Shown one piece after another: positions 7,172 through 17,821 of a stretch of DNA of 24,000 nt. The first letter of the stretch is position 1; each line of letters begins with the position of its first letter. The stretch comes from an uncultured Actinomycetota bacterium (GTDB lineage Bacteria; Actinomycetota; Actinomycetes; Mycobacteriales; Jatrophihabitantaceae): NCBI GenBank assembly GCA_963748415.1, contig CAVVJA010000017.1, positions 28,854 to 52,853 on the forward strand. The letters run 5' to 3'. Below the pieces are notes generated by a model. It saw nothing but the letters and a program-made list of their open reading frames with translations. It was not told the origin of the DNA and searched no databases. The translations under genes and the position numbers were made by a program.

Positions 7172-7218
7172 GATGATCTTTGAGATATGGGCGCTATTGA
7201 GCCTGTTGCAAAATTGCC
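7172..7218. repeat. left terminal inverted repeat of the IS1182-family element
   Basis: Aligned by eye to the reverse complement of 12687-12732. Shared blocks are GATGATCTT, GAG, GAGCCTGTTGC and AATTG, with a 2-nt length difference. Confidence 0.6.
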
Positions 7219-7976
7219 GCGCGCCTCTGCGGGTTGATCTTGGGTGCGCCACGAGCGCAGAGAGGGGTCGCCGTAGGAGATCTCTTGATGCGGTGCTGTG
7301 CAGGTGATGAAGGATTGCTGGCCCTTCGGCGTCGCCCTGCGGGGGGAGGCGTCAAACCGCCTCATGCTGCGTTGGTTGGTGACCGTCGTGGTGAGCGATG
7401 AGGAAAAGGCGCACTTTGATGCGTCAGGTGGGGATCGGGAAGGCGAGCGTGAGCGAACCGCTGAGGACGCGTCGAAACAACTGGATGACATCAAAACCGG
7501 GGAGGCTAAGAGTCTCCGGGATGAGCCTGGCGGGTGCCCGCTGATTGGCCAGGCGGTGTCCGGCGTGAAGGCGGCGCGAGCCCGGTCTGCGGCTCCTGCA
7601 CGGAACGTGGGGTGCGCCGGGATAAACCGGCAGGAGGAAAGGGATGAGAACGCCCGACATCGAAGGAGTAGCGATCCACGATGGCCCCGAGTCATGCGTC
7701 GACGTCCGTGAGGGCGGCGGCGAAGCGTTGACAGGGGTACGTGCAGGCCGAGCTATTGAGCCGCGAAATCACAGTTCGGGGTGCCGACGTCGTCTCACGA
7801 GACGGAAGGCCACATCGCCGGCGGCGTTAGCGCGAGCCGTTTGGTGGACCCCGCGCGGTCTGAGAACCTGGCATGTACGGAGTCCTTCTGCGCGAGAACC
7901 GGGAGGTCCCACTGCTCGCCCGTCCGGATGATCACCGGGCGGGCCGCTCAGGGAAGGCTGAGGCGGTAAGCCTGGG

Positions 7977-9521
7977 ATGAACGAGCGTGGGAAGTCAGAT
8001 GGGCCCGTAGTACCGACGAAGCCGCCGAACAAGGCCGGGGAAGCGGCCGCGGAGGTGGTGGAGGGAAGGCGCCCGGCCGAGGGGAACACGGCCGGCAAAA
8101 CGCATCCCGGACGCAGAGCCGGGCAAGGCGCGCCAAGCGGGCTGGATCGTGTACGTGAAGTAGCACGAACAGACAAGGATGCACGGTTCACGGCGCTGCT
8201 GCACCACGTCAACGTCGACCGTCTGCGGGCGGCCTACCGGGCGATCAGCCCGAAGGCCGCGCCGGGGGTGGACGGGGTGACGTGGGCAGCCTACGGGCAG
8301 GATCTGGAGGACAACCTTCAGGACTTGCACCGGCGGCTGCACGCAGGCAGCTACCGGGCAAGGCCGTCGCGGCGTGTCCTACATCCCGAAGGCGGACGGG
8401 CGGCAGCGGCCGCTCGGCATCGCCACGCTGGAGGACAAGATCGTCCAGCGGGCCGTCGTCGAGGTGCTCAACGCCGTCTACGAGGCGGACTTCCTCGGCT
8501 TCTCTTACGGGTTTAGGCCGGGACGCAACCCGCATGACGCGTTGGATGCGCTCACGGTCGGGATCTAGCGGAAGAAGGTGAACTGGGTGCTCGACGCGGA
8601 CATCCGCGACTTCTTCACCAGGATTGATCATGGCTGGTTGAAGAGGTTCCTCGAGCATCGAATCGCGGACAAGCGGGTCCTGCGGCTGATCGATAAGTGG
8701 CTGAGCGCGGGGGTCATCGAGGATGGGAACTGGTCGGAGACGAGGAGGGAACACCGCAGGGGGCATCGGTATCACCGTTGCTCGCCAACGTGTACCTCCA
8801 CTACGTCTTCGACCTGTGGGCCGAATGGTGGAGACGCCGGCACGCGCGCGGCGACGTGATCATCGTGCGCTGGGCGGACGACTTCATCGTGGGCTTCGAG
8901 CACCAAGATGATGCGAGGCGGTTCCTGAGCGAGCTTCGCGAGCGGTTCGCGAAGTTCGGGCTGGAGCTACATCCGGACAAGACGCGGCTGATCGAGTTCG
9001 GGCGGTTCGCCGCCCAGAATCGGCAGGCGCGGGGCCTCGGGAAACCGGAGACGTTCGACTTCCTGGGCTTCACGCACATCTGCGGGAACACGCGGAACGG
9101 GCGGTTCTGGGTGCGGCGTATCACGATCTCGAAGCGGATGCGGGCAAAGCTGCGAGAGGTCAAGGACGAGCTCAAGCGGCGCCGACATCAGCCCATCCCC
9201 GATCAGGGACGGTGGCTGGCGAGCGTAGTGCGGGGACACCGCACCTACTACGCCGTGCCAGGCAACAGCGAAGCGGTGCCACCTTCCGCACCCAGGTGAC
9301 CAGGCACTGGCACGAGGCGCTGGAGCGCCGCAGTCAGCGCACCGGATGAACTGGGACCGGATGGACCGCCTCGCGACGCGATGGCTGCCGCCCGCCCGCG
9401 TAGTGCACCCTTACCCGAGGCGCGCTTTCGCGTTCGCACCCGAGGCAGGAGCCCAGTGCGGTAGTACCGCACGCTGGGATCTGTGCGGGGGGCCGCCCGC
9501 AAGGGCGGTCCCTACCGCGAT
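7977..9521 (+). pseudogene. group II intron reverse transcriptase/maturase, disrupted (at least 4 frameshifts and 1 in-frame stop)
   Basis: RT sequence is spread over ORFs 7977..8516 ('[33 protein letters not shown]'), 8374..8568 ('[26 protein letters not shown]...[12 protein letters not shown]', ending in TAG 8566-8568), 8578..8859 ('NWVLDADIRDFFTRIDH', same frame as the previous piece), 8697..9299 ('GTPQGASVSPLLANVYLHY...VRWADDFIVGF...LHPDKTRLIEF') and 9346..9609 ('NWDRMDRLATRWLPPARVVHPYP'). Confidence 0.8.
9449..9521 (+). ncRNA. group II intron domains V and VI (inner intron 3' end)
   Basis: DV: GAGCCCAGUGCGG-loop-CCGCACGCUGGGAU with the AGC triad at 9450-9452. DV has a UAGUA-type (non-GNRA) loop. 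DVI: GCGGGGGGCCGCCC-GCAA-GGGCGGUCCC(UA)CCGC, with a bulged branch-point A at 9514. Confidence 0.7.
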
Positions 9522-9747
9522 AAGGCGGGTGCCGACACGGCCGCCGCGTGTTGTGAGGCATGGGGTGGTGAGAGGGAGCGCGTCGTACGGCGGAATCCGG
9601 AGACGCTGAGTACCGTCGCGGCGCCTGCTGGCGGACCGGCTCGTAGTAGCGGTGAAGCCCTGTAATGGGGGTGGAGCGAAGGGGCCGGCTCATCGATGGA
9701 TTTGTTCGCGCGAGCAACCGGGATCGAGAGGTTCTGGGAGGAGACGA

Positions 9748-11019
9748 GTGGGCAGGCCAGGTCAGGCTGAAAAGTCGTTTGATATTCCGAAGCAACTGGT
9801 GTGGGAGGCGTACGAGCGAGTCAAGGCGAACAAGGGTGCCGCCGGGGTGGATGGGCAGTCCATCGCCGGCTTCGAGGCCGATCTGCAGAACAATCTGTAC
9901 AAGATCTGGAATCGGATGTCGTCGGGGACCTACTTTCCGCCTGCGGTGCTGGCAGTGGAGATACCCAAGACCGGTAGCGGTGCGGGCACGAGGGTGCTCG
10001 GGGTGCCGACTGTCGCGGATCGGGTGGCGCAGACGGTGGCGGCGCTGACGCTGGAACCGCGGACGGAGTCGATTTTTCATTCTGACTCCTACGGGTACCG
10101 GCCAGGGCGCAGCGCGCTGGATGCGGTGGCGGTGTGCCGCACGCGGTGCTGGAAGAAGGCGTGGGTCATCGACCTTGATGTGGCCGCGTTCTTCGACAGC
10201 GTGCCGTGGGACCTGATGGTCAAAGCGGTCGAAGCCAACATCACCACCGAGCAGCGTTGGGTGCTGCTGTACGTGAAGCGGTGGCTACAAGCTCCGCTGC
10301 AGTTACCTGACGGCACGGTGCGGCAGCGGGACCGGGGGACCCCACAAGGGTCATCGATCTCGCCCGTACTGGCGAACCTGTTCCTGCATTACGCGTTCGA
10401 TTCGTGGCTAGCGCGCGAGTTCCCAACGGTGGAGTTCGAGCGGTACGCCGACGACGCGGTGGTGCATTGCGTGACCCAGCGGCAGGCACAGCAGGTGCTG
10501 GCCGCGCTCACGGCGAGGATGGCCGACGTCGGGCTGCGGCTGCACCCCGACAAGACCAGGATCGTGTACTGCAAGGACGGAGACCGGCGTCGCGAGCAGC
10601 ATGAGCACACGTCGTTCACCTTCCTCGGGTTCACGTTTACCCTGCGGCAGGCGCGGGGCAAGCACGGGCTGTTCAGCTCGTTCATGCCCGCGGCCAGCCG
10701 ACAGGCCCTCGCCGAGATGGGTCAGCGGGTTCGTCGGTGGCGGCTGCACCGGTGGGTCCAACGGGACCTGGCCGAGATCGCCGCGCAGATCAATCCGATC
10801 GTGGCGGGCTGGATCAACTACTACGGCCGGTTCTACCCGTCGCGGATAGTGCCCCTCCTGCAGCGCATCAACACCTACCTGATGCGCTGGGCAGGCATGA
10901 AATACAAACGGCTGCGGTCCTACAAACGCTTCAAGGCGTGGTGGTTCGGGATCATCGATCGAGACCCCGACCTGTTCGCGCACTGGCGCATGGTTCGCAC
11001 GTTCGCCGGACTGCGATGA
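9748..11019 (+). CDS. group II intron reverse transcriptase/maturase, intact, compact (423 aa), no endonuclease domain
   Basis: Part of ORF 9652..11019. I chose GTG 9748, preceded by GGGAGGAG (9735-9742). Motifs: 'GAAGVDGQS', 'GVPTVADRVAQ', 'SYGYRPGRSALDA', 'GTPQGSSISPVLANLFLHY', 'RYADDAVVHC', 'LHPDKTRIVY', and the maturase/X motif 'IVAGWINYYGRFY'. The protein ends shortly after the X domain. Confidence 0.9.
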   Translation: MGRPGQAEKSFDIPKQLVWEAYERVKANKGAAGVDGQSIAGFEADLQNNLYKIWNRMSSGTYFPPAVLAVEIPKTGSGAGTRVLGVPTVADRVAQTVAALTLEPRTESIFHSDSYGYRPGRSALDAVAVCRTRCWKKAWVIDLDVAAFFDSVPWDLMVKAVEANITTEQRWVLLYVKRWLQAPLQLPDGTVRQRDRGTPQGSSISPVLANLFLHYAFDSWLAREFPTVEFERYADDAVVHCVTQRQAQQVLAALTARMADVGLRLHPDKTRIVYCKDGDRRREQHEHTSFTFLGFTFTLRQARGKHGLFSSFMPAASRQALAEMGQRVRRWRLHRWVQRDLAEIAAQINPIVAGWINYYGRFYPSRIVPLLQRINTYLMRWAGMKYKRLRSYKRFKAWWFGIIDRDPDLFAHWRMVRTFAGLR

Positions 11020-11022
11020 GAA

Positions 11023-11096
11023 GAGCGGAGTGACGGGAGACTGTCACGCTCCGTTCTGTGGGAGCCCGGGGGTGCGATCCCCCCGGGCCACCCGAC
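11023..11096 (+). ncRNA. group II intron domains V and VI (outer intron 3' end)
   Basis: DV: GAGCGGAGUGACGG-GAGA-CUGUCACGCUCCGUUC (34 nt, AGC triad, GNRA loop). DVI: GGGAGCCCGGGGG-UGCGA-(U)CCCCCCGGGCC(A)CCC with a bulged A at 11090, then GAC. Confidence 0.75.
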
Positions 11097-11115: not shown

Positions 11116-12647
11116 GTGGCGAAGGGGTTTCGGCCGGTGCAGCGGGATCAGGTGTTTCTGTTGCCGCCGGATATGCGGCAGTGGCTGCCGGCTGATCATC
11201 TGGTGTGGTTTGTGTTGGACGCGGTGGCCGGCCTGGATCTGGCGGCGTTTTGGGGGCGACGTCGGCTCGGCGGGGCTGGGCGGGCGGCGTATGACCCGGC
11301 GATGCTGGTCGGCTTGTTGATCTACGGGTACGCGGTTGGGCAGCGGTCGAGTCGGCAGATCGAGCGGCTGTGTCACACCGATGTGGCGTTTCGGGTCGCC
11401 TGCGCGCAGGACGTGCCCGATCATGTGACGATCGCCCGGTTCCGGGCCGAGCACGAGACCGGCCTGGGCGGGTTGTTCGAGCAGGTGTTGATCGTCTGCG
11501 CTCGGGCCGGGATGGGGCGGGTCGGCGCTGTGGCCCTGGACGGCACCAAGATCGCCGCGAACGCTGCGCTGAGCGCCAACCGCGGCGAGTCGGCGCTGCG
11601 GGGGCTCGCCGCTGGCATTCTGGCCGAGGCTGCGGCGGTCGATGCCGCGGAGGATGAGCTGTTCGGGGATCGGCGGGGTGATGAGCTGCCGCCGGAGTTG
11701 GCTGACCCGGACGGGCGGGCGGCGCGGATCCGGCGGTTGCTTGATGACATCGCCGCCGAACGCGAGGCCAAGTCGGCCGACAGCGAACGGACTCGGCGGG
11801 CCGCCGAGCGGGTCGCGCAGGCCCGCGACAGGCTAGCCGACACTCGGGCCGAGGTCGGCCGCCGCAACGCCGAGCGGGCCCGCTGGGAGCAGCTGATCCG
11901 CGCCGGGGGCGGCAAAGGACTACCCGGCCGCGCGGTGCCGGTCGAGCAGCACTACGACGTCCGGGCTGCCGCCGCCCGACTGGCCCACGCGCAGGCGAAT
12001 CTGGCCCGCGCCGTGCACCCGCAATCAGCAGCGCCCGGCACGCCCGGGGAAGCCAAACGCAACCTCACCGACCCCGACTCGCGAATCATGCCCACCCGGC
12101 ACGGCTGGGTGCAGGGCTACAACTGCCAACTGGTGGTCAGCAGCGACTACCTCATCCTGGCCGCCGACCTGCACAACCGCCCCGGTGACGTCACCAGCTA
12201 CCAGCCGGTGATCGACCAGGCCGCCCAGGCCGCCCGCGCGATCCGCCGCGCCACCGGCCGCCGCAGCCGCATCGGCACCGTGCTCGCCGACGCCGGCTAC
12301 GCCAGCACCACCAACCTCACCTGCCCCGGACCGGACCGGCTCATCGCTCTCGGCACCCGACACCACCACCACACCGCCGCCCGCGACAACCCCGCCCACG
12401 GGCAACCACCCCACGACGCCACCCCGTGGCAACGCATGCACCACCGACTACGAACACCCGCCGGCGCCGCCGCTACCGACACCGCGCCGCCATCGTCGAA
12501 CCGGTCCACGCCCACCTCAAAGACCGCCGCGCTCTCCGCGCCTTTGCCCGCCGCGGACTCACCGCCGCCCGCAGCGAATTCCGCTTCGCCGCCGCCGTCA
12601 CCAACCTCCTGCGACTCCGCACCGCCCTCGCCAACACGGCAACATGA
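11116..12647 (+). pseudogene. IS1182-family DDE transposase with one frameshift near the C-terminus
   Basis: ORF 11098..12777 (probable GTG start at 11116, '(M)AKGFRPVQRDQVFLLPPDMRQWLPADHLVWFVLDAV...AYDPAMLVGLLIYGYAVGQRSSRQIERL...ALDGTKIAANA...VLADAGYAS'). It loses the conserved tail around 12461-12475 in a GCC-rich run. The tail 'YRHRAAIVEPVHAHLKDRRALRAFARRGLTAARSEFRFAAAVTNLLRL' continues in ORF 12426..12647. Confidence 0.8.
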
Positions 12648-12686
12648 TCAACAACAGAGTCCCAACCGCCACCGGCACCAACACGC

Positions 12687-12732
12687 AGCCAATTACGCAA
12701 CAGGCTCTATTGGCATTAACTCCAAGATCATC
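12687..12732. repeat. right terminal inverted repeat of the IS1182-family element
   Basis: Its reverse complement aligns with 7172-7218 (see the left IR). It ends about 20 bp downstream of the sensor-kinase stop codon (12752-12754). Confidence 0.6.
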
Positions 12733-12751
12733 CGTGGGGAGCCTCAGGCGA

Positions 12752-14314
12752 CTATGGGGCGCCCAGATAAAGGGTGACTTGCGCGCCGCCGGTTGGTGAG
12801 CTGCCGGTATCCATCCAGCCGCCACTGGCCTGCGCGCACCGGCGCGCGATCGACAACCCCAGGCCACTTGACCCTCGGTCGCTGCGTCCGCGGATCCCCG
12901 CTCCGTCGGGCAACCCGGGACCGGCGTCGCTTACGGTCAGCTCGGTCAGGCCGGACAGACTTGACAACCGCGGGCTGAACGCGGCTGCGCCACCCGACGG
13001 GCCCGGCGCGCTGACCGCACCCTCGGGGCTCAAGACTGCATTGAATCGGGCCGGTCCGGCGGCCGAGCCAGGCGCGAACGGCCGGCCCGCCGGTGCATCC
13101 AACGATGCCGCGGAGTCCGGGCCAACAAAGCCGGTCGGGCCCGCGCCTACCGAGCCGGTCAGGTCCCACGAGGTCGACGGGTTCGGGGATGCCGAGCGCA
13201 GCGACACGGCGAACGGCGTGCCTTCGGGGGTGTGCGCCACGACATTTTCGATCAGCGCGTCGACCGCCGCGGCCAGATCTTCGGCCGATGCGCGGACGAT
13301 GAGCGGACCGTCCGGAAGTGTCAGCGTGCATGCCCGTTCCTGCTCGTCGGTCAGGGCGGACCAGAACGCAACTCGATCGCGCACGACCGCGGTCGCGTCG
13401 GCGGACGGCAACCGGCCTTCTCGTTGCGGCCTCCGGGCGGCATGGATGACGGCAGTCAGGGTTCGCTCGAGGGCGGACGCCTGGGTCGCGATCCGCTCGC
13501 GCTCGGCCGGATCGCGCAGCGACTCCGACTCCAACCGCAGCGCGGTCAGTGGCGTTCGCATCCGGTGAGAGAGGTTCGCGACCGTCTCCCGTTCTTCGGC
13601 GACCAGCTCATCGATCCGGTCGGCGAGCTGGTTGAGCGATGCCCCGACTTCAGCCACCTCACGCGGCCCGTTCGTCGGGGCCCGAGCGGTGACGTCCCCG
13701 GCGGTCAGCAGGTGCGCGGTCTCGGCCGTCTGGACGAGGGGGCGAACGATGCGACGAGTCAGCAACTCGGCGCCGAACACGCTCACCACCAACAGCGCGA
13801 GGCTGCCACCGACGACCAGCATCAACCGCCCGACTTCACCGCTGTGCAAGGCAGCATTCGACACGTAGACCTGCACGAAGTACATGCCGTCGGGCAGCCG
13901 GAGGGCGAGCTCGGCGACCTGGCCACCGGGAATCTGACGTAATTGGGCCTGTTCGCCACCTTCTCCGCCGGGTGGTGGCCGGTTGTTCTCTGTCTCGTTC
14001 GGGGGCGACTCCGCTGGCGAGCCGTGGCCTGGCCCGGCGGCGCCGGGCGGCGCGGTGCCGAGCACGGTCCCGTCGGGCGTGCGCACGCTGGTGCGGCGGT
14101 CCTTGTTCTGCGCGAGCGCCTTCAAGTAGGACTCGATGGCGGCCTGATTGTTGTTCGTGCGAATGGTCAGCGCCACGTTGTTCGCTTGTAACACGGCCGC
14201 GCGCTCCGCGTTCTGGACCACGGAGGAGCGAATGAGCAGCGCCACCGGGATGGCGAACGCCAGGATGACAAGCGTCGTCAGCCCGACGACCAGGGCCATG
14301 ATCTGGCGGCGCAT
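12752..14314 (-). CDS. two-component sensor histidine kinase (2 TM, HAMP, HisKA, HATPase_c with a long low-complexity insertion)
   Basis: 520-aa ORF. TM1 'MALVVGLTTLVILAFAIPVALLI', TM2 'LMLVVGGSLALLVVSVFGAELL', H-box 'NLSHRMRTPLTAL', N-box region 'LIENVVAHTPEGT', G1 'VSDAGPGLP', G2 'GSSGLGLSIA'. ATG 14314 lies 1 nt after the response-regulator stop. Confidence 0.85.
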   Translation of the reverse strand: MRRQIMALVVGLTTLVILAFAIPVALLIRSSVVQNAERAAVLQANNVALTIRTNNNQAAIESYLKALAQNKDRRTSVRTPDGTVLGTAPPGAAGPGHGSPAESPPNETENNRPPPGGEGGEQAQLRQIPGGQVAELALRLPDGMYFVQVYVSNAALHSGEVGRLMLVVGGSLALLVVSVFGAELLTRRIVRPLVQTAETAHLLTAGDVTARAPTNGPREVAEVGASLNQLADRIDELVAEERETVANLSHRMRTPLTALRLESESLRDPAERERIATQASALERTLTAVIHAARRPQREGRLPSADATAVVRDRVAFWSALTDEQERACTLTLPDGPLIVRASAEDLAAAVDALIENVVAHTPEGTPFAVSLRSASPNPSTSWDLTGSVGAGPTGFVGPDSAASLDAPAGRPFAPGSAAGPARFNAVLSPEGAVSAPGPSGGAAAFSPRLSSLSGLTELTVSDAGPGLPDGAGIRGRSDRGSSGLGLSIARRCAQASGGWMDTGSSPTGGAQVTLYLGAP

Positions 14315-15385: not shown

Positions 15386-15409
15386 GGCTTCAGCCTAGGC
15401 TTGCTTGCT

Positions 15410-16892
15410 GTGGGTTTCGTTGATCTCCAGGACTTCTTGCGCGCATTGGAGCGTGAGGGGGACCTGGCGAGGGTCGACACGCCGGTCGACCCGGACCTCG
15501 AGGTGGCGGCGATCGTCCCGCGGGTGGTGCGCGATCGGGGCCCGGCCCTGCTGTTCGAGCAGCCGACCCGCGGCCGGCTGCCGCTGGCGATCAACGTCTT
15601 CGGCACGACGCGGCGGATGGCGATGGCGCTCGGCGTCACAGTCCCTCGACGAGATCGGCGAGCGGATCGGCGAGCTGCTCAAGCCCGAGCTGCCGCGCGG
15701 TGTCGGCGGCTTGCGCGACGCGCTCGGCAAGGTCGTGCAGCTGCGGGCGGTGCCGCCCCGGCAGGTGAAGGTCGCGCCGTGCCAGGAGATCGTGCTCAAG
15801 GGCGACGAGGTCGACCTGTCGATCGCTGCCCGGCTGAAGGCCTGGCCCGAGGACGGCGGCGTCTTCCTCAACTTCGGCCTGACCCACACCAAGCACCCCG
15901 AGACCGGCAAGCGCAACCTCGGCCTGTACCGGCTGCAGCAGCACGACGAGCAGCACGGTCGGCATGCACTGGCAGATCCACAAGGACTCCACCGCGCACC
16001 ACGCGGTGGCCGAGCGGCGCGGCGAGCGGCTGCCGGTCGCCATCGCCTTCGGCTGCCCGCCCGCGGTCACCTACGCGGCGTCCGCGCCGCTGCCGGGCGA
16101 CATCGACGAGTACCTGTTCGCCGGGTTCCTGCGGGCGAGCGGGTGGAGATGGTCGACTGCCTCACCGTGCCGCTGCAGGTGCCGGCGCACGCGCAGGTCG
16201 TCCTCGAGGGCTGGGTCGAGCCGGGCGAGCGGCTGCCCGAGGGCCCGTTCGGCGACCACACCGGCTTCTACACGCCGGTCGAGCCGTTCCCGTTCCTGCA
16301 CGTCGACGTGCATGACGATGCGGCGCGACCCGATCTACCAGTCGATCGTCGTCGGCCGGCCACCGCAGGAGGACGGGCCCGATCGGGCAAGGCCACCGAG
16401 CGGATCTTCCTGCCGCTGATCAAGCTGACCGATCCCGGACATCGTCGACTACGACCTGCCCGAGGCGGGCGTGTTCCACAACTGCGTCATCGTCTCGATC
16501 GACAAGCGGTACCCCAAGCACGCGCAGAAGGTGATGAACGCGATCTGGGGCGCCGGACTGATGTCGCTGACCAAGCTGATCGTCGTCGTCGACGACGACT
16601 GCGACGTGCACGACTACGCCGAGGTCGCGTGGCGGGCGTTCGGCAACGTGGACTACGCGCACGACCTGCTGCTCACCGAGGGCCCGGTCGACCACCTGGA
16701 CCACGCGTCGTACCAGCAGTTCTGGGGCGGCAAGGCCGGCATCGACGCGACCCGCAAGCTGCCGGGCGAGGGCTATCGCCGCGACGGGGGCTGGCCGGAG
16801 GAATGCGTGGTCGACCCCCGATCACGCAGCTGGTCGACCGCCGCTGGGCCTCGTATCGCATTCCGCGTGGGGCCGACGGAGGTGCTGGGTGA
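15410..16892 (+). pseudogene. UbiD-family decarboxylase of the futalosine menaquinone cluster, frame-disrupted (about 7 frame changes)
   Basis: Conserved UbiD sequence is readable only by hopping frames. (GTG 15410) 'GFVDLQDFLRALEREGDLARVDTPVDPDLEVAAI...INVFGTTRRMAMALGV'. Shift ~15645: 'SLDEIGERIGELLKPELP...GLTHTKHPETGKRNLGLYRLQ'. Shift ~15950: 'VGMHWQIHKDSTAHH...IDEYLFAGFLR'. Shift ~16135: 'GERVEMVDCLTVPLQVPAHAQVVLEGW...GPFGDHTGFYTPVEPFPFLHVDV'. Shift ~16308: 'MTMRRDPIYQSIVVGRPPQEDGP'. Shift ~16383: 'GKATERIFLPLIKLT'. Shift ~16435: 'PDIVDYDLPEAGVFHNCVIVSIDKRYPKHAQKVMNAIWG...'. Shift ~16815: 'ITQLVDRRW...' to TGA 16890-16892. Confidence 0.8.
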
Positions 16893-17821
16893 CTGAGCCA
16901 AATCGCGCCACATTGCCCCACAGTCCGGGCGCAAACCGAGGCCGGGTCGCGAAGTTCCTCCGGCTGGTGATGATCGAGCACTCGGTCTTCGCGCTGCCGT
17001 TCGCCTACATCTCCGCGCTGACCGCGATGTGGCAGCTGACCCGATCGGTCCACTGGTGGGAGCTGCTGCTGATCACCATCGCCATGGTGTCGGCGCGCGG
17101 ACGTTCGCCATGGCCGCCAACCGGATCCTCGACCGGCGCATCGACGCGCCGAACCCGCGCACCGCACAACGCGAACTGGTCACCGGCGAGCTCGATCTGC
17201 GTGCCGCCTGGATCGGCGCGGTCGTCGCACTTGATCGTGTTCCTCGCGAGCGCCGCCGCGCTGTCGTCGCTGCTGCCTGCTGCTCGCGCCGCTCGCCGTG
17301 GTGCCGCTGGTGGTCTACCCGTACGGCAAGCGGTTCACCGACTTTCCGCACGCGATCCTGGGCATGGCCCAGTTGATCGGGCCGGTCGGGCGCCTGGCTG
17401 GCGGTCACCGGCGAGGTGTCGTGGACCGGCCGGTGGTGCTCGGCCTCGGGGTGGGCATGTGGATCGGCGGATTCGACCTCATCTACGCCTGCCAGGACGC
17501 GGAGGTCGACCGGCGCGATCGGTGCGCGGTCGTCCCGGCCCGATTCGGCGTCCCGGTCGCGCTGCAGGCGTCGACGGTCGTGCACGTCGTGACGTTCGGC
17601 GCGTTCGTCTGGTTCGGCGTCGCCGCTCGGGCTCGAATGGTTGTGGTGGATCGGCGTGCTGCTCACCGCCGGCGTGCCTTCGTCTACGAGCATCGCGATC
17701 GTGCGGCCAGACGACCTGCCGGCGGGTCAACCGGGCGTTCTTCACCGCCAACGGCTTCATCGGCATCGGCCTGTTCGTGTTCGCCCTCGCTGATCTGATC
17801 GCGCAGGGCCTCCGCTGGTAG
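16889..17821 (+). pseudogene. UbiA-family prenyltransferase (MqnP-like, 1,4-dihydroxy-6-naphthoate polyprenyltransferase type), frame-disrupted (at least 8 frame changes)
   Basis: GTG 16889 overlaps the UbiD-like stop (GTGA). Conserved blocks sit in different frames: 'VAKFLRLVMIEHSVFALPFAYISALTAMW' (16889 frame), 'TFAMAANRILDRRIDAPNPRTAQRELVTGE' (17029 frame), 'PLAVVPLVVYPYGKRFTDFPHAILGMAQLIGPVG' and 'GVGMWIGGFDLIYACQDAEVD' (17298 frame, with a short out-of-frame 'AWLAVTGEVSWTG' between them), 'LGLEWLWWIGVLLTAG' (17029 frame, read by me), and 'RVNRAFFTANGFIGIGLFVFALADLI' (16889 frame) to TAG 17819-17821. Confidence 0.75.

Follow-up and report, generated by a model that had tools for sequence, protein, structure and literature searches.

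Do two group II introns that lie in close succession in a bacterial genome follow one another, or does one sit inside the other? This question is raised by positions 7244-11096 of a 24,000-nucleotide stretch of DNA (hereafter the window) from an uncultured Actinomycetota bacterium of the Jatrophihabitantaceae (GenBank assembly GCA_963748415.1, contig CAVVJA010000017.1, positions 28,854 to 52,853 of the forward strand). An earlier note, made from the letters alone, had proposed that the intron encoding the first of two reverse transcriptase (RT)/maturases, RT1, is nested in the 5' half of the intron encoding the second, RT2. From a comparison of both introns with uninterrupted relatives we conclude, with high confidence, that the locus consists of three nested levels: an insertion sequence (IS) element of the IS1182 family contains an outer group II intron (7244-7611 joined to 9522-11096, 1943 nt), which in turn contains an inner group II intron (7612-9521, 1910 nt).

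Excision of the inner intron restores the outer intron

Both introns begin with GTGCGCC (7244-7250 and 7612-7618), as had been noted earlier. Rfam searches matched two distinct domain I models one after the other, RF01999 (group-II-D1D4-2; 7309-7429, 99.8 bits) and RF02005 (group-II-D1D4-6), followed in nested order by two sets of domains V and VI, each with the bulged branch-point A that had been reported. The inner set scores just below the RF00029 gathering score of 40; at the 73 conserved 3' columns it shows no departure from the family consensus. The termini are canonical in both cases (outer: GUGCG at 7244 and CCCGAC ending at 11096, identical across the family; inner: GUGCG at 7612 and CGCGAU ending at 9521). 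Judged by the Rfam models (D1D4-2 versus D1D4-6), the two introns belong to different ribozyme families. We found no mapping of these models to the named classes (A-F, CL, ML, IIC) in the literature; only Rfam sub-models can be assigned.

For comparison with the joined outer sequence, 80 genomic loci encoding RT2 relatives were fetched; the named hosts among the closest matches were all Actinomycetota. The joined 1943 nt gave a single BLAST high-scoring segment pair over positions 1-1943 with dozens of uninterrupted introns (70-82% identity), several of these being contigs of 1937-1951 bp collapsed from repeats. When 19 uninterrupted relatives were aligned with it in MAFFT, the junction left by excision, GGAACGTGGG|AAGGCGG, proved gapless and almost invariant. 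Precise excision of 7612-9521 restores a contiguous outer intron, and the locus is in this sense a twintron. The excised segment likewise aligns over its positions 1-1910 with uninterrupted, annotated plasmid introns (in 4140 plasmid records the match spans 80% of it or more) and, after a scan with repaired RT1 as query, with over 70 metagenome copies that are 70-87% identical to it. Within the inner family, homology extends precisely to 7612 and 9521 and no further; beyond these points the relatives have unrelated flanks. Since uninterrupted relatives of the RT1 intron start at the 7612-type sequence and measure 1904-1917 nt, the start of the RT1 intron favours nesting, and the sizes of about 1.94 and 1.91 kb, which had been called normal for such introns, agree with those of uninterrupted copies.

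The structure of the outer intron points the same way. In an RNAalifold consensus of 40 outer-family sequences, domain I is closed by pairing of 7249-7253 (CCACG) with 7606-7610 (CGUGG), a helix in which compensatory changes occur (12 sequences have U-A for C-G, two have G-C for A-U, and three again U-A for C-G), and the next outer domain begins at 9524. The segment 7244-7611 is thus a complete, separately closed domain I of another family than that of 7612-8100, with which it might have shared a single domain I had the nested model been wrong. As the closing helix ends at 7610 and the next domain starts at 9524, the insertion is placed by this consensus model one nucleotide past outer domain I, where domains I and II meet.

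Both introns fit their insertion sites

To locate the exon-binding site 1 (EBS1) we searched both families for the intron segment that complements the last six exon nucleotides, which form the intron-binding site 1 (IBS1). In the outer family (40 homologues), one hairpin loop follows the exon end copy by copy. This hairpin, with its CUAAG sequence, had been likened to a tetraloop receptor; because its loop varies together with the exon from one copy to the next, it is instead the outer EBS1, and in the window it pairs with UCUUGG at the end of the 5' exon.

In the inner family, the EBS1 alignment column holds six nucleotides that complement the exon end perfectly at 48 of 59 distinct insertion sites. 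The window copy forms six base pairs between CUCACG and CGUGGG, including one G-U, so that the insertion site fits the intron's own target recognition. Retrohoming guided by EBS/IBS pairing, as suggested before, is therefore supported, but through CUCACG and not through the proposed CCCAC at 7908-7912. Copies whose exons are unrelated still have UCCCRY at this latter position; conserved whatever the exon, the segment is not EBS1. For the inner EBS2 only a weak signal was obtained, tentatively placed just 5' of the EBS1 hairpin (around 7774-7779).

The inner IBS1 coincides with the 3' strand of the helix that closes outer domain I. The target of the inner intron is for this reason conserved in every outer-family intron, and pairing of the inner EBS1 and formation of the outer helix are mutually exclusive. 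These competing pairings favour sequential folding, without proving it.

RT2 is intact and RT1 has decayed

RT2 is an intact open reading frame (ORF) of 455 aa, free of lesions and 65-80% identical to its 80 genomic relatives; a domain search detected RVT_1 and GIIM only, and no endonuclease domain. Of the two RT/maturase ORFs reported earlier, this is the one that holds, while RT1 is a pseudogene. RT1 is broken into at least four frame pieces, and tblastn alignment with intact relatives requires several frame changes. Compared with six close relatives it carries five window-specific 1-nt indels (at about 8375, 8741, 9277, 9342 and 9419), all outside homopolymers, and an in-frame TAG at 8566-8568 that arose by substitution. 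An ORF of at least 470 aa is kept in 50 of 52 full-length inner relatives; the longest in the window copy has 200 aa, and the inner intron hence does not encode a functional RT/maturase. The indel rate is similar in the RT1 ORF and in the inner ribozyme, suggesting general decay. The ribozyme itself agrees with its family at 205 of 207 highly conserved 5' columns (278 of 280 when the 3' columns are included). The coordinates of all features are collected in Table 1.

Table 1. Features of the nested element and its host in the window
Feature	Position	Strand	Basis or remark
Left inverted repeat, IS1182-family element	7196..7216	+	21 nt, 86% complementary to 12690-12710
Outer IBS1 (UCUUGG), final 6 nt of 5' exon in IS leader	7238..7243	+	Pairs with 7506-7511
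Outer intron 5' segment, complete domain I	7244..7611	+	RF01999; colinear with positions 1-368 of uninterrupted relatives
Outer EBS1 (CUAAGA), loop of hairpin 7497-7520	7506..7511	+	Loop covaries with 5' exon across the family
Inner IBS1 (CGUGGG)	7606..7611	+	Complementary to 7794-7799; overlaps 3' strand of outer domain I closing helix
Inner group II intron, full-length RNA boundaries	7612..9521	+	End-to-end alignment with uninterrupted copies
Inner domain I core	7647..7868	+	RF02005 group-II-D1D4-6, 190.8 bits, E=1.9e-56
Inner EBS1 (CUCACG), loop of hairpin 7788-7804	7794..7799	+	Covaries with 5' exon
RT1, inner intron RT/maturase, pseudogene	7977..9465	+	RVT_1 matches split over three ORF fragments
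Inner domains V and VI, bulged branch A 9514	9447..9521	+	RF00029, 35.9 bits, E=1.6e-4 (below gathering score)
Outer intron 3' segment, domains II-VI including RT2	9522..11096	+	Colinear with positions 369-1943 of uninterrupted relatives
RT2, outer intron RT/maturase, intact	9652..11019	+	RVT_1 1.8e-38, GIIM 4.1e-15; start GTG 9652 or GTG 9748
Outer domains V and VI	11021..11096	+	RF00029, 55.2 bits; branch A 11090 bulged
IS1182-family transposase gene, probably frameshifted near 12400	11116..12777	+	DUF772 and DDE_Tnp_1
Right inverted repeat, IS1182-family element	12690..12710	+	Partner of 7196-7216

Inner-family introns insert recurrently into other introns

The nested site of the window recurs in two independent metagenome contigs (L numbers are locus labels of this analysis; L086-L165 are inner-family metagenome loci). 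Locus L155 has outer-type sequence on both flanks, and L093, with an outer-type 5' flank, contains the two Rfam domain I models in the order and spacing of the window. In L093 (115-2855) the 5' flank is an outer-type domain I at 85% identity, and the 3' flank belongs to another intron lineage, common to L086 (1825-4311); L093 reflects either recombination between host introns through a shared inner copy or a chimeric metagenome contig.

A second site, CGUAG|UAG, lies near the start of the intron-encoded protein (IEP). Inner copies occupy it in outer-type introns (L087, L097), within their own family (L091, L100, L104, L124) and in L154. The CGUAGUA..GAAGCC element that the earlier note had found in both introns is real, and the repeated insertions at CGUAG|UAG mark it as a recurrent homing site, to be placed in either domain III or domain IVa. 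At a third site, after GGGAGACUGUCA, inner copies lie within domain V of outer-type introns (L001 1560-2732, from a Mycobacteriales metagenome-assembled genome; L114, L129, L121, L116), a position at which the host's catalytic hairpin would be interrupted. The junction in L001, imprecise at first sight, is better explained by a recurrent site together with the variant GAAAGCG 5' end of the family. Further inner copies are found within RT ORFs (L096, L138) and in head-to-tail tandems (L137, L143). At every one of these sites the EBS1 loop fits the sequence at the insertion point.

By BLAST alone, a flank holds intron sequence in 19 of the 71 loci with a usable flank, one of these, L098, being an artefact of indexing. 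Roughly one inner-family copy in four has its place in another group II intron or beside one. The rarity claimed earlier for nested bacterial introns calls for a qualification: few bacterial twintrons are known, but within the inner lineage nesting is frequent.

Many inner copies among L086-L165 lack the GUGCG start and have a non-canonical 5' terminus, GAGCG, GAUGCG or GAAAGCG, instead. For these the EBS1/IBS1 covariation sets the exon boundary directly before the variant, and most such copies keep intact ORFs. Two plasmid-borne proteobacterial relatives of the inner intron stand directly after LexA-box-like palindromes, CTGTATGAATATACAGT in a Cupriavidus plasmid (L082 283-300) and CTGTATGTTTGTACAGT in a Burkholderia plasmid (L084 283-300, between imuA and an SOS-response peptidase gene). 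The aligned EBS1 loop of L082, ACUGUA, is complementary to the end of the palindrome; that of L084 fits less well.

The outer family nests too. In L041 (931-4742) an outer-family intron lies within another at position 763/764, in L036 and L016 outer-family introns are nested within RT coding motifs, and L057 has a 1.7-kb insert near position 260-275.

The host insertion sequence and its surroundings

The twintron lies in sense orientation in the leader of the IS1182-family element, 19 nt upstream of the likely transposase start (GTG 11116, inferred by alignment to relatives). Intron-less relatives of the element (Rhodococcus pRB98, Pseudarthrobacter pASPHE301) align straight over 7243|11097, and the left inverted repeat can be aligned to the termini of such relatives from Rhodococcus and Pseudarthrobacter plasmids. 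The surrounding window is chromosomal, with 69% G+C.

The C-terminal DDE_Tnp_1_6 motif of the transposase (12426-12647) is in another frame than the N-terminal 430 aa. Further downstream, a UbiD-like decarboxylase gene (15400-16900) beside intact menaquinone genes of the futalosine type contains at least five frame changes; either the gene has decayed into a pseudogene, or the assembly has indel errors at this place. Together with the transposase it indicates either a pseudogene-rich genome or such local errors.

History and proposed splicing of the nest

The inner intron entered the outer one by reverse splicing and retrohoming, guided by the pairing of CUCACG (7794-7799) with CGUGGG (7606-7611), a mode of insertion that the sequence shows. 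From its position at the domain I/II junction we infer sequential splicing: the inner intron would be removed first, allowing the outer ribozyme to fold and assemble normally, and only after this removal would RT2 help the outer intron to splice and to move. As RT1 is broken, inner splicing would require either self-splicing or a maturase from another inner-family copy in the genome. If there were no such helper, the twintron would be a dead end in which the inner intron in effect disables its host intron.

Several points weigh against this account. The inner ribozyme has two window-specific 1-nt deletions, near 7774 and 7870, and may be inactive. An intact RT2 next to an RT1 with five indels and a stop codon is a poor fit to simple parallel neutral decay since insertion. 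Given the repeated frame changes in the UbiD-like gene, some of the indels could be assembly errors. Finally, the order of splicing and the competence of both introns are read from sequence, and an insert in a linker between domains might be tolerated by the outer ribozyme unspliced.

The contrast between the two RT genes is easier to understand if the inner intron arrived defective or RT2 is still under selection, as when the inner intron did not insert here: the twintron or a pre-invaded outer copy would have moved as a unit into the IS leader, or a defective inner copy would have been mobilised in trans. Composite mobility and trans-mobilisation have been discussed for the Thermosynechococcus twintrons (PMC2882425). 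We consider such a history unlikely, since L155, which occupies the same nested site, lacks these lesions, and the window contains no second copy of either intron.

It is distinctly improbable that the nest is real and the inner intron fully active, so that the twintron splices and moves normally and the RT1 frameshifts are assembly indels. The frame changes in the UbiD-like gene (15.4-16.9 kb) and the transposase, and the agreement of the inner ribozyme at 278 of 280 conserved columns, would fit this explanation. However, the TAG at 8566-8568 is a substitution and no indel, and the indels in RT1 avoid homopolymers. RT2, a histidine kinase gene (exactly matched in an independent assembly) and at least seven other long genes in the window are intact, so that assembly errors would be oddly clustered.

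An assembly chimera, in which two separate introns were misjoined through repeats, deserves very little credence. Each intron is a member of a repeat family, and chimerism may affect metagenome contigs, L093 among them. Here, however, neither boundary is off by even one nucleotide, the inner EBS1 suits the site of insertion, excision restores the outer intron perfectly, and the independent contigs L155 and L093 have the same arrangement. A tandem of an RT1 intron spanning 7244-9521 and a 5'-truncated second intron (9522-11096), which matches the linear order of the two RT genes and nothing further, is refuted, because both the joined outer and the excised inner intron align end to end with uninterrupted relatives: in those of the RT1 intron the 7612-type sequence is the start, and 7244-7611, of a different Rfam family and with its own EBS1 fitting exon 7238-7243, is contiguous in uninterrupted relatives with 9522 onward.

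The three-level nest, by comparison, adds a clean bacterial twintron in which the boundaries of both introns are defined to the base and both EBS1/IBS1 pairs are identified. The two intron families that it brings together are unrelated, and the RT of the outer intron is intact where that of the inner one has decayed. The case also allows one to ask whether an invading intron silences its host intron. More useful is the wider pattern of one intron family repeatedly targeting structurally constrained motifs of other introns, a natural system for how mobile introns find "safe", perpetually available homing sites. Three such motifs were found, namely the domain I closing helix (window, L155 and L093), CGUAG|UAG near the IEP start, and domain V. 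A tentative reading of this pattern, to which we give slightly less than even weight, is that the inner lineage lives largely inside other group II introns, retargeting its EBS1 to motifs that its hosts must conserve. In soil Actinomycetota some one copy in four is nested in another intron or adjoins one, across intron families. If the reading is true, this would amount to a hyperparasitic intron habit on a scale undescribed for bacteria.

Comparison with known twintrons

Euglena plastids are rich in twintrons, and "several are known in bacteria" (PMC4424553). In the Euglena plastid twintrons (Copertino & Hallick), as proposed here, an intron lies within an intron and the inner one is removed before the outer can fold (PMC4424553); in contrast to the present case, these are degenerate organellar introns in protein-coding genes that are not retromobile with RT genes. 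As far as the account of Dai & Zimmerly (2003) given in PMC4424553 goes, the introns of Methanosarcina acetivorans home repeatedly into other introns and, as here, affect no coding exons; they differ in being archaeal, in reaching up to five levels of nesting, and in homing mainly into related intron ORFs.

A bacterial counterpart is the Tery_4732 twintron of Trichodesmium erythraeum, in which the inner intron lies in domain I and sequential splicing has been proven (Pfreundt & Hess 2015, PMC4649490). Like the twintron of the window, it is bacterial, has the inner intron inside the host's domain I region, and consists of two introns with an IEP ORF each; its ORFs, too, are degenerating. It differs in that it interrupts a conserved protein-coding gene and that both introns are IIB-type and cyanobacterial, whereas the window has an IS-element leader as host, two different Rfam domain I models and an insertion at the domain I/II junction, and is known at the level of sequence.

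In Thermosynechococcus elongatus, five TeI3/TeI4 twintrons arose as one intron family targeted another intron at a conserved site (Mohr, Ghanem & Lambowitz 2010, PMC2882425); these insertions were recurrent and independent, and the inner introns rely on an IEP supplied in trans (PMC2882425). The inner lineage described here resembles them in both respects, the second as far as the window copy would need a maturase from elsewhere. Unlike in the window, where the inner intron is of a different family, has a decayed RT of its own and sits in the ribozyme core, the Thermosynechococcus inner introns are ORF-less derivatives of the same lineage and are located in domain IV between two start codons; the CGUAG|UAG site of our other contigs is the closer analogue. 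Bacterial twintrons have thus already been described in Trichodesmium and Thermosynechococcus, and the window is a further case, distinguished by its two different intron families, the domain I/II junction, the IS-element host and the actinobacterial host. The lineage-wide habit of living in other introns may be the part that is new.

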